A stretch of 36,815 nt of DNA from a virus (taxonomy: Duplodnaviria > Heunggongvirae > Uroviricota > Caudoviricetes), in IMG/VR virus record IMGVR_UViG_2617270943_000002, positions 1 to 36,815 of that record; one strand, 5' to 3'. The translations under genes and the position numbers were made by a program. The number at the start of each line of letters is the position of its first letter. Positions within the stretch are counted from its first letter, which is position 1. Below, one piece after another: positions 1 through 4,267 of this stretch. The notes under the pieces were generated by a model. It made no database searches and was not told where the DNA came from. It saw nothing but the letters and a program-made list of their open reading frames with translations.

Positions 1-1224
1 ATGGCGCTGTCTGATGCGTGGTTGCGTTCAGTCGTTGGAAAGGAACGTGATAAGGTTTTGGTTAAATCCGATCGTGATGGTTTGTCTGTCAGAGTATCAC
101 CGAAAGGTCGCGTAGTGTTCCAATATCGTTATCAATGGGCAGGGAAAGGTGAGCGTCTTGATATCGGAACTTACCCGGCAACTGGATTAAAAGAGGCCAG
201 AGAAGAAGTTATCCGTCTCCGTGGTGAACTCGAGTCAAACCGTAATCCACGATTGGTCAAGCAGGCTGAAAAACGAAAAGCTACTGAAGCCATGACGGTA
301 GAGTCTGTGATCCGTGCCTGGTATGAAGCATATTGTGTAAAAAATAAAAAAGGTTCTGAACAGATACTCCGCTCGTTTGAGCTGCACCTGTTCTCTAAAA
401 TCGGGAATATCCCTCACGATGCAGCTACATTGCATGATTGGTTAGAAGTCCTGGAGCCTCTTAGCACTAAGACTCCAGCAATAGCAGACCGATTGCTAAT
501 TAACGCAAAGCAGGCCCATGTCTGGGCGTATAAGAGAAAGCTCATTGAAACTCGCCCGCTGTCGGATATCACGGGTAAAGATATGGATATCCGTAAAGGT
601 CAGAAGAAACGGTTTCTGACACATGATGAAATTAAAATCCTTTATGCTGCGATCGATGGTTCTCGAATGGTTCCTAAATACCGGGCCTTCATTAAACTAT
701 TGCTTCATTTTGGTTGCCGTAGTTCAGAGCTAATTACTGCCAAGGTGGACGATTTTGATTTCATTAATAAGATATGGACTGTACCACCAGAACGACATAA
801 GACAGGGGATATAACAGGCGAACCGCTAAAGCGGCCCATTATTGAACCGGTTGAAGAGCTTATAAAATACGTTATCTCTATGAACAACGGTTCCGATATG
901 CTTTTTACTAAGGAAGGAAGCAGGGAACCAGTTGGTCGGACATCATTGCAGTCGCTGCCTTACAATTTAATGCAGTACGCATGGCGGCGTTTGGGGTATC
1001 AATTTCCTCATTGGTCTCTTCATGATTTGAGACGAACAGCACGAACAAACTTTTCTGATCTTACTGCGCCTCATATTGCAGAAATAATGCTAGGTCATAA
1101 ACTGCCAGGGGTATGGCAAGTTTATGACAAGAGCGATTATCTAGAAGAACAGCGTAAAGCCTACCAGGCATGGTGGGGGAGAGTTGAATCGATTGTTACT
1201 TGTACTAACTCAGACTCTAACTGA
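1..1224 (+). CDS. int: Tyrosine site-specific integrase, P4/IntA-like (407 aa)
   Basis: N-terminal arm-binding-type motif (GLSVRVSPKGRVVFQYRYQWAGKGERLDIGTYPATGLKEAREE), C-terminal catalytic region with HDLRRTARTN and a downstream Tyr; ORF runs 1..1224. Confidence 0.85.
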   Translation: MALSDAWLRSVVGKERDKVLVKSDRDGLSVRVSPKGRVVFQYRYQWAGKGERLDIGTYPATGLKEAREEVIRLRGELESNRNPRLVKQAEKRKATEAMTVESVIRAWYEAYCVKNKKGSEQILRSFELHLFSKIGNIPHDAATLHDWLEVLEPLSTKTPAIADRLLINAKQAHVWAYKRKLIETRPLSDITGKDMDIRKGQKKRFLTHDEIKILYAAIDGSRMVPKYRAFIKLLLHFGCRSSELITAKVDDFDFINKIWTVPPERHKTGDITGEPLKRPIIEPVEELIKYVISMNNGSDMLFTKEGSREPVGRTSLQSLPYNLMQYAWRRLGYQFPHWSLHDLRRTARTNFSDLTAPHIAEIMLGHKLPGVWQVYDKSDYLEEQRKAYQAWWGRVESIVTCTNSDSN

Positions 1225-1271
1225 TAGGATAGTTTACGTAGCTAGAACGCAATAGGATATGACGATCTGCT

Positions 1272-1300
1272 TTGAGCAAGTAGTTGATATCACGTACAAT
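1272..1300 (+). promoter_or_regulatory. Sigma70-like promoter candidate for the 870-aa cargo gene (-35 TTGAGC, 17-bp spacer, -10 TACAAT), overlapped by a short inverted repeat ATCAC-N7-GTGAT
   Basis: TTGAGC at 1272-1277 and TACAAT at 1295-1300 read directly; inverted repeat atcacgtacaatgtgat overlaps the -10. Confidence 0.35.
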
Positions 1301-1332
1301 GTGATCTTTATCGAATAATACACGAGGTGAAA

Positions 1333-3939
1333 ATGAATAAGTTATTCATAAATCATATCAACGAAAATTATATTCAGATAAGTCATCGTTCATCTTTTAA
1401 TTGCAATACTGAATTGTTTAACGCAACTGTATCAGTTGGTAAGTCGCTTGAGGATTTAATCTGCGCTTGTCGGTCTCTGAGTATAGAAGGTGCGGATGGT
1501 AACAATTTAAGCATTATAACTAGCAGCCTGAAGAAAAAACTAAGAGAGCTTGTTGTTACAAATTTTCCCTTAACAAAAGTCTACCAACAAACAGAATTTG
1601 GTCCTGGAGTAAAACAAGAAGAAATCAACTCATCTTCTATGATAATTCAAATATTTCAATTTTACCTAGGGGCGATATCTAATTGTGATATCATATTACA
1701 TCTCAAATTTTTTGTTGAAAGCCTTTCTATTACGGAGTCATTTGTTGGCAAACCCCCAAAAACTCTTTTACATGAATATTTCCAAAGACATCAACACATA
1801 ATTCCTACATACAAAACCACCTTGGCTGGTGGGACCGAGCATGCACCAATATATGAGTCTGAAATAGCACTTCCTAATGGACAGATATTTATCGGAAGTG
1901 GTGAGAGTAAAAAAAAAGCAGAGAATAATGTTGCCAGTTTAGTTTGCAATCATTTGAATTTGAAAAACAATAAAAAACAAATATTAAAATCTAATAGTAT
2001 TATTTCAGCATGGGGTGGCGTACAGAAACCGAATGTTAAAGAGTGTTACATCAACAATGAATTGAACATGGCTTTTGGTTTTTCAAATAACTTTAATTCA
2101 ATCCAGGCTTTTATACCCCCTAGAATAAAGGGTAAAAATAGATCTATAAGTTCGCACAGAGATCTCGCTACTTTAGGTTCGCATTATATTTCCTTACTAG
2201 CTTCAGTAAGCCTACTTGAGATAATAAAAAATGGACAGAATGTTATTGACAGAACTACGTTAGGGATCATGGTGTTATCTGAAAAAAACTTTATGAGATT
2301 CTATAACTCAGGTTTTATTTCAATAGATTCTCTCCCCTATAAAGGACATCCAGATTATACAACTATATCTTATTATGTAGATTGTATTCAGGCATTGTTT
2401 GGAATGTCTCTTCTAAATCTGATAACTAAAAATAGTAAAATTCAATATAATGAGTTAATTTGCTCTTCCTCTGCAACAAATTGGTTGTACAAAAGAATAA
2501 AAAACTATAATTTGGATGAAGAATCTAATAAAGATATTATACCGACACTGACTTTGCATAGAATGCAAAAATACGGATTTGTATTTAAACTTATAAAAAA
2601 TCTAGATGTATATCAGCTTGAAATAGCTCATATTCGTAATGGGGATAATTTTGTTATCTATGCAGATCCTCTAATTCAAACAAGAAAAGATGCGATGACT
2701 AGGCTTGCGGGAAGTTGCCTTAAAGCATTGGATAGACTTGAAGGTGTGTTTCTCGAACCTCCTAGGTCTGAAGATTCTAAAAAAAATCAAAAAAAATTGA
2801 TTTCATACTTACTTCGTAATATATCAGAAGACAGGCCAGTGGTCTTAAGTGAAGAGCAACTCTCCGTAATATCAAAGAAAAAAAATGAATACGTACAATA
2901 TGACTTTGATATGCTTAAAGAAAAATTCTTGTCACAAGAAATGAATTACCTTGAAGCTTCAGTTATATTATTTTTACTCCACCAAAAATTAATGTTGGTG
3001 GACGACAGCATTGATAATATTTGCTATCTATCGCTACCTATTTGGAGTGATCAAAATTCTCTTGACTACGATAATTTTAATGATTCATCTGCAGATGCAG
3101 ATGCAGATGCAGATAATCATGTAAATATAAATTTTATTCTGGATTCCATTGAAGATTCCCAAGAAAAACAGTATATAAACTATGATAGCGCCGCTAAAGC
3201 CAGCAGTTTGGGTGAGATTTTATCAAGATATGATAGGTTAAATGCAGATTGTTTATCTCAATTATGGGATAAAAGGAAAAGTAGTTTTAAATACATTGAA
3301 GAAGCTGCAATAGTGCTCTCTAAAATTCGTTATGAGCGAGGATTAGATTTTAAGTTAATGAGTTACAAAAATTTTCTATCTACCAGCATGATTAAAGAAC
3401 TTCAACTTCCATCGTTTGATGAAGAAAACTCAAAACCCTTACAAATAAAGTCAGATTTACAGCTTGCAAAAGTAAAAAAACAATCTAAAAAAATATTTAG
3501 TGCTACTGAAAAATTTGATTTTTCAACAGCAGGGAGTTTTAAAATAAATAACTCTGATGAACGAAAGGTTATAAATAGAAACGTCACGATACGTATAGGT
3601 CAAAGCGACTTCAGAAATAAACTGATAAACGTTTGGGGGCAATGTGCCTTTACTGGGTGCAAAACAATAGCAGTACTTGATGCAGCTCATATTTATCCTT
3701 ACAGAGGAGATAAGGATAATCATATAAAAAATGGCTTGTTATTGCGTACTGATATACATCGTCTCTTTGATAACTATCTAATATCTATTGACCCAGCGAC
3801 TTTAAGGATTCACGTAAGTGATATGGTGCGCGATAGGTACTATCAGGAGCTGAATGGTGTCCTATTGAGGGACAAGGTTGGGTTGTCTATGCAAGCTCTA
3901 GAATACCATTGGTTTTATTTTACATCACAGGGTGATTAG
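1333..3939 (+). CDS. Large AT-rich protein with a dsRBD-like region (approx. aa 143-212) and a C-terminal HNH nuclease domain; function unknown, candidate defense nuclease
   Basis: ORF 1327(GTG)/1333(ATG)..3939 with GAGGTG RBS just upstream; dsRBM-like motif PPKTLLHEYFQ...PTYK...GGTEHAPIYESEIALPNGQIFIGSGESKKKAENNVASLV; HNH_2-like motif CAFTGCKTIAVLDAAHIYPYRGDKDNHIKNGLLLRTDIHRLFDNYLISIDP near the C-terminus; codon composition very AT-rich relative to the flanking phage genes. Confidence 0.6.
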   Translation: MNKLFINHINENYIQISHRSSFNCNTELFNATVSVGKSLEDLICACRSLSIEGADGNNLSIITSSLKKKLRELVVTNFPLTKVYQQTEFGPGVKQEEINSSSMIIQIFQFYLGAISNCDIILHLKFFVESLSITESFVGKPPKTLLHEYFQRHQHIIPTYKTTLAGGTEHAPIYESEIALPNGQIFIGSGESKKKAENNVASLVCNHLNLKNNKKQILKSNSIISAWGGVQKPNVKECYINNELNMAFGFSNNFNSIQAFIPPRIKGKNRSISSHRDLATLGSHYISLLASVSLLEIIKNGQNVIDRTTLGIMVLSEKNFMRFYNSGFISIDSLPYKGHPDYTTISYYVDCIQALFGMSLLNLITKNSKIQYNELICSSSATNWLYKRIKNYNLDEESNKDIIPTLTLHRMQKYGFVFKLIKNLDVYQLEIAHIRNGDNFVIYADPLIQTRKDAMTRLAGSCLKALDRLEGVFLEPPRSEDSKKNQKKLISYLLRNISEDRPVVLSEEQLSVISKKKNEYVQYDFDMLKEKFLSQEMNYLEASVILFLLHQKLMLVDDSIDNICYLSLPIWSDQNSLDYDNFNDSSADADADADNHVNINFILDSIEDSQEKQYINYDSAAKASSLGEILSRYDRLNADCLSQLWDKRKSSFKYIEEAAIVLSKIRYERGLDFKLMSYKNFLSTSMIKELQLPSFDEENSKPLQIKSDLQLAKVKKQSKKIFSATEKFDFSTAGSFKINNSDERKVINRNVTIRIGQSDFRNKLINVWGQCAFTGCKTIAVLDAAHIYPYRGDKDNHIKNGLLLRTDIHRLFDNYLISIDPATLRIHVSDMVRDRYYQELNGVLLRDKVGLSMQALEYHWFYFTSQGD
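3091..3114 (+). repeat. Hexanucleotide microsatellite (GCAGAT)x4 inside the 870-aa ORF, encoding ADADADAD
   Basis: gcagatgcagatgcagatgcagat read directly. Confidence 0.9.
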
Positions 3940-3997
3940 TAATCTTGATAAGCTATCCAACCATTAAAATACCAAGAAGTAATTAACATCCACTTAT

Positions 3998-4059
3998 GGC
4001 ACAGAGTAGACAGTCAGATTAGGTTTAGCTCTGTGCCATAGATGTGTTAGCTCACATCT
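3998..4059. terminator. Two inverted repeats between the convergent 870-aa gene and xis; possible bidirectional terminator region
   Basis: ggcacagag...ctctgtgcc (3998-4037, long loop) and agatgtg-ttagct-cacatct (4040-4059); no strong T-run, so weak call. Confidence 0.3.
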
Positions 4060-4072
4060 GAACTAATACGTA

Positions 4073-4267
4073 TTACTCAATAACTCCCGCAAACCTGTAT
4101 ATCTTGTGTGATGCCCATTTATTGGGGCAGGATTTAATATCAGGATCTGGAAAGTCAGGCCTATATTTCTGGCCAGTTCTCCTGTTTACGCTGTTCCAGC
4201 GAAGAACTGTCGATACTGAAACGCCACAGAAGTCGGCGACTTGTTTAGTTGTCATTAAGTTGTTCAT
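4073..4267 (-). CDS. xis: AlpA/Xis-family excisionase-like DNA-binding protein (64 aa)
   Basis: Small HTH protein MNNLMTTKQVADFCGVSVSTVLRW... with the DFPxP...K.W motif typical of AlpA/Xis-family proteins; last gene of the leftward operon. Confidence 0.65.
   Translation of the reverse strand: MNNLMTTKQVADFCGVSVSTVLRWNSVNRRTGQKYRPDFPDPDIKSCPNKWASHKIYRFAGVIE

Follow-up and report, generated by a model that had tools for sequence, protein, structure and literature searches.

We analysed a window of 36,815 nucleotides (IMG/VR virus record IMGVR_UViG_2617270943_000002, positions 1 to 36,815), which represents a lambdoid siphovirus prophage. Most of the window is 98% identical to Escherichia phage vB_EcoS-569R4; identical Escherichia coli loci are integrated adjoining yjjG. 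Between the integrase gene and a small helix-turn-helix (HTH) gene of this prophage, which are its two adjoining genes, lies the gene studied here, encoding a protein in which an RNase III-like N-terminal half with a double-stranded-RNA-binding domain (dsRBD) is joined to a C-terminal HNH_2 nuclease domain. Our confidence in this architecture is high. We lean, by a modest degree, towards the view that the protein is a stand-alone, prophage-borne conflict nuclease in which a catalytically dead RNase III pair would sense RNA duplex and license the HNH domain to cut DNA. The features of the locus are collected in Table 1.

The gene is a single open reading frame (ORF) of 870 aa when read from GTG 1327, as the initial annotation had described it, and all residue numbers used here follow this ORF. 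A chance ORF can be excluded because the frame extends over 2.6 kb at 32% GC and has homologs of 24-85% identity. The GC content across the gene was 0.28-0.34 (about 0.32 overall), compared with 0.43-0.46 for the integrase before it and 0.45-0.49 for the genes after it; the AT-richness that had been pointed out therefore held, and it marks a foreign base composition. While the reading frame was borne out, the GTG start was not, and the true start is probably ATG 1333: the motif GAGG at 1324-1327 stands 5 nt 5' of this ATG as a putative Shine-Dalgarno sequence, and the RefSeq protein of 868 aa begins there (start-region sequence GAGGTGaaaATG). The promoter of its own that had been predicted for the gene was not upheld. 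The sigma-70-like site is present, but the region contained fewer promoter-like sites (9) than shuffled sequence (13.6 +/- 3.2), so that the site is no evidence of a promoter. On the 3' side, an inverted repeat lies where the nuclease and HTH genes converge; possibly a terminator, it lacks a T-run and was not called by the terminator scan.

Table 1. Features of the nuclease locus (positions refer to the window, residues to the 870-aa ORF)
Feature	Position	Strand	Basis or remark
Prophage tyrosine integrase (flank)	1..1224	+	Tyrosine-type recombinase/integrase by annotation of identical E. coli loci
Sigma-70-like site TTGAGC-17-TACAAT	1272..1300	+	9/12 consensus; weak evidence only
Coding sequence of the nuclease	1333..3939	+	868 aa; maximal ORF from GTG 1327, 870 aa
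RNase III catalytic-type domain 1, degenerate, residues about 1-140	1327..1746	+	Family profile against RNase III; model
Canonical dsRBD 1, residues 144-210	1756..1956	+	Pfam dsrm
Putative RNase III catalytic-type domain 2, residues about 240-398	2044..2520	+	Conservation, model, weak hidden Markov model alignment
dsRBD-like domain 2, residues 404-472	2536..2742	+	Secondary structure in both models
Helical C1-like 'MID' domain, residues 481-575	2767..3051	+	Predicted confidence (pLDDT) about 90, helical
Acidic low-complexity linker, residues 576-625	3052..3201	+	Length highly variable across the family
Conserved helical 'C1' domain, residues 626-745	3202..3561	+	Conservation
HNH_2 nuclease domain, residues 746-866	3562..3924	+	Pfam; Pfam core 773-822 at nt 3643-3792
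Perfect 11-bp inverted repeat ATGGCACAGAG / CTCTGTGCCAT, 22-nt loop	3996..4039	.	Read from sequence
Small HTH (xis-like) gene, bounding the cargo slot (flank)	4073..4267	-	HTH/DNA-binding annotation in sister loci

The dsRBD that the initial annotation had placed at residues of about 143-212 was recovered as Pfam dsrm (PF00035) at residues 144-210, with an E-value of 2.6e-10 and 41.1 bits against a gathering cut-off of 23. The dsrm domain was detected in 16 of the 18 family members scanned, and its motif was conserved across ~15 clusters. In this domain (dsRBD1), all three regions that contact double-stranded RNA (dsRNA), KT.LQE..Q, G..H and SKK.A, were kept at a conservation of at least 80%. 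In canonical dsRBDs, these residues touch the 2'-hydroxyls and phosphates of the RNA. As judged from its sequence, dsRBD1 retains every one of these canonical contacts and is predicted to bind RNA.

We found that dsRBD1 does not stand alone. A family profile built from 15 sequences over residues 1-575 aligned in a PDB profile search with residues 17-224 of the 226-residue chain of E. coli RNase III (E=4e-23) and with residues 18-219 of Aquifex RNase III, and the alignment took in the 'L.H.S' and '..G' signature region. Because the profile spans the whole of RNase III, dsRBD1 is the C-terminal portion of a full RNase III-like unit (unit 1). The domain picture given initially was thus right in its dsRBD but incomplete, as the dsRBD is the tail of an RNase III-like unit and a second, degenerate unit appears to follow it. 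In our reading, which leans on the predicted structure described below, residues 1-575 form two tandem RNase III-like units, each composed of a catalytic-type domain and a dsRBD. The second unit carries two nearly invariant, non-catalytic motifs, SHRxLAxLG[S/A] and [D/E]CIQ[A/S]LF, which align with NERLEFLGD and D..EALIG of RNase III. The distance from G284 to D352 was 68 residues in unit 2, compared with 70 residues (G44-D114) in E. coli RNase III, and the spacing in unit 1 (G38-Q108) was also 70 residues. The second dsRBD-like domain (dsRBD2) had the alpha-beta-beta-beta-alpha fold without the canonical RNA-contact motifs, and it conserved another surface consisting of R412, G417, L465, D469 and E472-G473.

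Neither unit retained the catalytic carboxylates of RNase III (E38, E41, D45, D114 and E117 in E. coli). Unit 1 has N32, V35, K39, V95, Q108 and Q111 at the positions of E38, E41, D45, E100, D114 and E117, and these positions are variable and mostly non-acidic across the family; by its sequence, the site of unit 1 is decayed. In unit 2, the residues R278, A281, G284, S/A285, D352 and Q355 occupy the positions of E38, E41, G44, D45, D114 and E117 and are nearly invariant, and only one carboxylate is kept (D352, equivalent to D114). Mutations of the E110Q and D44N type in Aquifex RNase III abolish cleavage but not binding. The positions of these two mutants are those of Q355 and S/A285, and the mutants were crystallised with dsRNA or its cleavage product, as evident from the PDB titles. 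As almost all of the metal-binding carboxylates are gone, the RNase III pair should bind an A-form duplex without cutting it.

The full-length AlphaFold model, made from a 5-sequence alignment, had a predicted local distance difference test (pLDDT) score of 35.5, and only the secondary structure was used from it. A model of residues 1-575 on a deeper alignment reached a pLDDT of 85.0 and a predicted template modelling score (pTM) of 0.59, and it displayed the all-helical fold of RNase III catalytic domains. A Foldseek search of this model against the PDB returned Dicer, DCL and Drosha with E-values of 1e-5 to 2e-3 over 483-588 aligned columns, and a search against viral structures returned giant-virus and ascovirus RNase III with E-values of 5e-11 to 1e-7 over 528-562 columns. 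Upon superposition, 258-308 residues co-aligned with Giardia Dicer, Dicer-1 and Drosha. To our knowledge, Giardia Dicer has no dsRBD, so the 258 residues aligned to it should come from both helical RNase III domains, in which case both folds would superpose simultaneously. At the level of the model (pTM 0.59), the two RNase III domains formed an intramolecular pair, and our reading is that the two folds would be paired within one chain in the manner of RNase IIIa and IIIb of Dicer and Drosha.

The HNH_2-type motif that had been noticed at the C-terminus corresponded to Pfam HNH_2 (PF13391) at residues 773-822 (E=1.5e-13, 50.8 bits; gathering cut-off 21); the domain was conserved across ~15 clusters and matched in 17 of the 18 family members. 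The catalytic histidine, the structural asparagine and the metal-binding histidine (H788, N802 and H811) were all present and, like D815 and C773, invariant in all members bearing the domain. The HNH active site is intact in sequence, and DNA-cutting activity is predicted; the characterised relatives of this HNH_2 domain are DNases, and the sole solved relative of the C-terminal half is VcaM4I (PDB 6yex, E=1.4e-9). The C1 segment has the conserved motif LW..R...F.Y.EEAAIVLS.IRYERGIDF, and no Pfam or PDB match was found for the C1 or MID segment. The hidden Markov models (HMMs) of MID and C1 (C1 taken here as residues 618-745, nt 3178 to 3561) matched each other's segments, which identifies them as related helical repeats, and free-standing proteins of ~400 aa (P0037, P0042 and P0048) consist of two C1-like repeats and HNH_2. 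HNH_2 nucleases thus seem to possess an accessory domain, the MID/C1 repeat, that has not been described before.

A linker of variable length connects the two halves of the protein. In the window it holds (GCAGAT)4, encoding ADADADAD, at 3091-3114, and a near-identical allele (P0001) has one unit fewer; the length polymorphism probably arose through replication slippage. Two variants of the family kept both RNase III-like domains and C1-HNH: P0019 lost dsRBD2 and MID, and P0020 lost any detectable dsRBD. Since only these parts are retained in both variants, the RNase III-like pair and C1-HNH constitute the constant core.

The gene lies, as had been proposed, in an integrase-proximal cargo slot. 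The slot extends over 1225-4072 of the window, and sister prophages at the same chromosomal site had the same integrase and the same downstream genes with other slot contents (L002 4225-6052 and L003 4213-6706). One of them carried a dGTPase in the slot (PADLOC E=9e-105) and another an AriA/OLD/GajA-like ATPase (E=8e-57). As these known defence genes are swapped in by sister prophages, the slot is a defence-cargo hotspot. In the best-matching complete genome (strain N2512, L001 13171-13782), an internal deletion of the prophage leaves yfdP directly next to a truncated gene for minor tail protein L. The nuclease gene is hence retained not only in the prophage of the window, which appears intact, but also in a degraded one.

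The prophage carries two adenine methylases, located more than 8 kb from the slot, and both recur in the backbone phage record, in which the nuclease gene has left no trace. We therefore rejected them as cognate methylases of the nuclease, and no methyltransferase adjoined the gene here or in any of the 12 homolog loci checked. The gene is also no terminase-associated packaging HNH gene, as it is integrase-proximal and encodes 868 aa; the terminase genes lie ~16 kb into the related backbone phage record, far from the nuclease slot.

An exhaustive profile search of 1.84 billion representatives revealed ~15 full-length relatives of 840-940 aa (clusters at 50% identity), beneath which ranked thousands of short HNH_2 proteins matching at the C-terminus only. 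A word-indexed homolog search with the 15-sequence profile found only the same 4 clusters. The named members came from Aeromonas, Acinetobacter albensis, Pseudomonas laurentiana and Pseudoalteromonas, with the remainder from marine and other metagenomes, and in public records they are called 'HNH endonuclease', 'putative dsRNA-binding protein', 'dsRNA-specific ribonuclease' or 'hypothetical protein'. Across Escherichia, Aeromonas, Acinetobacter, Pseudomonas and Pseudoalteromonas, the full-length architecture is retained at 24-30% identity. The gene was present in 18 of 5,426 complete E. coli genomes, where it is annotated as 'HNH endonuclease', and a GTDB scan of 100,044 species-representative genomes gave one locus. 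This single match is a 3.2-kb contig (DYWT01000186.1, L006) that is 99% identical to the E. coli gene; its metagenome-assembled genome carries the label Sporosarcina psychrophila, but the contig most likely derives from E. coli through mis-binning or contamination. Strain MB56 of E. coli (NZ_CP073936.1) has the locus annotated as two coding sequences, 'putative dsRNA-binding protein' and 'HNH endonuclease', which suggests a frameshifted or split allele, and many partial proteins in draft assemblies bear the same pair of names.

The N-terminal half was found in none of 50,697 phage GenBank records, where only C-terminal HNH matches occurred, and the plasmid search yielded no family members and genuine rnc genes only. 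Two IMG/VR phage contigs carried homologs of 54% identity (L016 7995-10751 and L017 6198-8924), located between the replication genes and DUF968/antiterminator Q, a second lambdoid accessory position. The use of two different lambdoid slots indicates that temperate phages captured the family at least twice.

The initial annotation had suggested examining whether homologs cluster in defence islands or at integrase-proximal prophage hotspots. Two GmrSD-type genes immediately precede homolog P0011, a BrxR/WYL regulator immediately precedes P0015, which also has MksE-like genes nearby, and P0017 lies in an island with HamA and a DEAD helicase (Hachiman) and an AAA_15/21 ATPase. The Acinetobacter homolog (P0013) was accompanied by a PIN-domain gene and recombinases/integrases, and the Pseudomonas homolog (P0016) formed an islet between dnaX/ybaB and ligA in which an integrase and a resolvase bracket the gene. 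In contrast to these GmrSD, BrxR, Hachiman and integrase neighbourhoods, P0008 was found among metabolic genes. P0004 adjoined an HTH_17 gene, and P0002 (85% identical) followed a short HNH_2 gene and adjoined an IS3 element.

At the P0002 locus, this upstream gene is a separate HNH_2 gene of 239 aa (L004 2153-2872), directly upstream, and the IS3 transposase is directly downstream. Pseudomonas (L018) also has a 239-aa gene in the corresponding position, but the two are unrelated. Directly upstream of P0008, a 62-aa ORF was seen on two independent contigs (L008 5528-5716 and L009 422-610); it had no convincing Pfam match and no equivalent in the E. coli window. No neighbour was common to the homolog loci, and the other small neighbours shared no Pfam domain. 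A two-gene system was accordingly rejected, because the 239-aa upstream genes of two homologs are mutually unrelated and the small neighbours have no shared Pfam domain. As there is no shared neighbour and the methylases are distant and kept without the nuclease, the nuclease is a single-gene module on mobile or defence DNA.

We then compared the protein with known systems. The initial annotation could not assign it to a named defence system, and we came to the same result: in PADLOC-DB v2.0.0 no system model covered the protein, and only generic HNH models matched, at residues 715-836. Our literature search found no description of an RNase III/dsRBD-HNH fusion or of a dsRBD-based phage sensor; the nearest items in print are a predicted HEPN-RNase III-dsRBD fusion (PMC3710099) and the statement on Dicer orthologs in prokaryotes (PMC5303251), both taken up below. 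The design is shared with type IV reader-HNH enzymes, to which TagI and ScoMcrA also belong. Like VcaM4I (EVE-HNH, PDB 6yex), the protein is a single polypeptide without a methylase, with an N-terminal module and a C-terminal HNH_2 domain, and the two have the common core R.GQ..FR...C..TG...AHI.P...NGL.L...H.LFD. In contrast to VcaM4I, the reader here consists of two putative RNase III-like units with dsRBDs, and Pfam, NCBIfam and PDB profile searches revealed no PUA-superfamily (EVE), SRA or SBD domain that could flip a base; the protein is also ~3 times longer and has two C1-like helical repeats between reader and HNH. The Type II restriction-modification members of the HNH_2 group (AlwI and HphI) differ in that no methyltransferase adjoins the gene here. 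We rate the protein as a restriction-like reader-nuclease with an unprecedented reader.

With regard to the reader itself, unit 1 is collinear with the whole of bacterial class 1 RNase III (Rnc; PDB 7r97 and 2ez6) and dsRBD1 is of the typical RNase III type, whereas the carboxylates are replaced, the two units would share one chain rather than form a homodimer, and the RNase III equivalog model TIGR02191 matched only the dsRBD part, at 37.4 bits against a cut-off of 166.25. The pairing of RNase III domains in one chain, as modelled, resembles Dicer and Drosha, but the order of the domains was RNase III-dsRBD-RNase III-dsRBD here and RNase IIIa-RNase IIIb-dsRBD there, no PAZ or helicase domain was found by Pfam, and the protein is predicted to be catalytically dead. 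Because of the different domain order, the absence of PAZ and helicase and the loss of catalysis, the protein would be an independent duplication of a bacterial rnc-like gene and no relative of Dicer; from prokaryotes no Dicer ortholog is known (PMC5303251). Mitoribosomal mL44 and trypanosome editosome MP44 are likewise inactive RNase III-like RNA-binding scaffolds, but they are eukaryotic organellar proteins without a nuclease fusion and unrelated to defence. Within the viral structure library, long matches were confined to the RNase III proteins of giant viruses and an ascovirus (Bodo saltans virus, Satyrvirus and HvAV-3g). In contrast to the protein studied here, these come from viruses of eukaryotes, carry an annotation as active RNase III and lack an HNH domain. 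Among bacterial conflict proteins, the predicted cyanobacterial HEPN-RNase III-dsRBD 'two-headed RNases' (Anantharaman et al. 2013, PMC3710099) also fuse an RNase III/dsRBD module to a second nuclease domain; in contrast, their RNase III is predicted to be active and its partner is a HEPN RNase, while here the RNase III module appears inactive and duplicated and the partner is of the HNH DNase type.

From these comparisons we infer the ligand, the coupling of the two halves, the DNA target and the defence phenotype as follows. Residues 1-575, as two tandem copies of bacterial-type RNase III, would form the sensor half, and residues of about 480-868 the effector half, a cassette like that of the free-standing ~400-aa HNH_2 proteins. 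By analogy with the reader-HNH type IV enzymes, the N-terminal half would be the specificity or trigger module and the HNH domain the effector. The most likely ligand would be an A-form duplex, namely dsRNA or possibly an RNA:DNA hybrid, because the sensor combines an RNase III pair without catalysis and a fully canonical dsRBD. Such duplexes may derive from symmetric phage transcription, RNA-phage replication or R-loops. Binding of an infection-associated duplex would position or unlock the HNH domain, and the resulting cut may fall in phage DNA or, as abortive infection, in host DNA. The protein would then work like a type IV restriction enzyme in which the reader of base modification is swapped for a reader of duplex RNA. 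Based on gene context, a role in defence or conflict is fairly probable, while an RNA-duplex trigger with DNA cleavage as the output, which is drawn from analogy, is a tentative proposal. In its most specific form, the protein would be a prokaryotic dsRNA pattern-recognition nuclease, in which a dead single-chain RNase III pair, independent of Dicer and Drosha, detects duplexes or R-loops and switches on the HNH DNase; this is doubtful. If true, bacteria would have in it a functional counterpart of the dsRNA sensing of eukaryotes, with DNA cutting as the output.

Several observations weigh against this model of a duplex-sensing nuclease. The dsRBD accounts for most of the strength of the 4e-23 E-value of the family profile. 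Taken by themselves, the catalytic-type portions reached a non-significant 7.2 and 4.5 bits against E. coli RNase III by HMM, although these weak alignments were in the predicted register, and a PDB search with 4-sequence profiles of residues 1-140 and of residues 215-480 did not bring up RNase III. By hhalign, units 1 and 2 were collinear with a P of about 0.1. The claim of two domains derives from a predicted structure in which the inter-domain confidence is moderate (pTM 0.59), and the coupling of sensor and HNH is a conjecture because the C-terminal half has no usable model. As P0020 has no detectable dsRBD, binding through the dsRBD is not universal in the family. A DNase triggered by dsRNA would need protection from self dsRNA, and none was evident. 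The family is very rare (18 in 5,426 and 1 in 100,044), which limits guilt by association to about a dozen loci, and one homolog (P0008) sits among metabolic genes.

Other explanations account for parts of the evidence. The protein may be a type IV restriction enzyme that depends on modification or structure; its RNase III-like module would then read phage DNA, for example heavily modified or A-like DNA, with RNA uninvolved. In keeping with this, its HNH_2 domain is closest to VcaM4I, a reader-HNH enzyme for modified DNA, the partial matches in PADLOC and NCBIfam are restriction-type HNH proteins, one homolog adjoins GmrSD type IV genes, and a cognate methylase is absent. We regard this as unlikely, since dsRBD1 keeps the residues that contact 2'-hydroxyls in canonical dsRBDs and Pfam revealed no PUA, SRA, EVE or other base-flipping reader. 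The whole N-terminal half appears built for RNA duplexes, which would equally suit a nuclease that targets RNA, in which dsRNA or the RNA strand of a hybrid is cut by the HNH domain, or else by what remains of the site in RNase III-like domain 2, so that phage transcripts or replication intermediates are degraded. D352 and a strongly conserved pocket do remain in unit 2, and IMG labels some members 'dsRNA-specific ribonuclease'. However, one RNase III carboxylate is left in unit 2 and none is conserved in unit 1, the TIGR02191 score of 37 is far under the cut-off of 166, and the DNase activity of the characterised HNH_2 relatives points away from RNA; we consider this reading very unlikely.

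The gene may also serve no defence function, acting instead as a selfish or phage-beneficial nuclease (homing-type, host takeover or prophage maintenance) or in another cargo role. Temperate phages carry it at two accessory positions, it occurs in small integrative islets, HNH nucleases are common in homing elements, and P0008 lies outside a defence context. This explanation is quite unlikely, as no host gene is interrupted, the gene does not adjoin the terminase, which is the site of phage-packaging HNH proteins, the N-terminal half is absent from all 50,697 phage records, and several homologs occur in defence islands outside phages (BrxR, Hachiman and GmrSD). Finally, the loss of the RNase III catalytic residues, the split of the gene into two coding sequences in at least one genome annotation and the many partial proteins in draft assemblies could be taken to indicate a decaying, non-functional fusion relic. 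The retention of the full-length architecture at 24-30% identity across five genera, together with the invariance of the HNH residues and of the unit 2 motif, already largely refutes this reading and makes it exceedingly unlikely.

The gene is a further type of cargo in the integrase-proximal defence hotspot that lambdoid prophages carry when integrated at the yjjG site. If the preferred model of a duplex-sensing conflict nuclease is true, bacteria would possess an innate immune sensor in which an RNase III scaffold serves to read the structure of RNA duplexes, a trigger not described in the defence literature that we searched. Single-chain RNase III pairing, held to be a eukaryotic hallmark of Dicer and Drosha, would then have arisen independently in Gammaproteobacteria, and the reader-HNH design of type IV enzymes would accept a reader that does not read DNA. 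Annotation pipelines should in that case look wider, as the family is labelled only 'HNH endonuclease' or 'putative dsRNA-binding protein', and a DNase gated by an RNA duplex or hybrid could serve as a tool.

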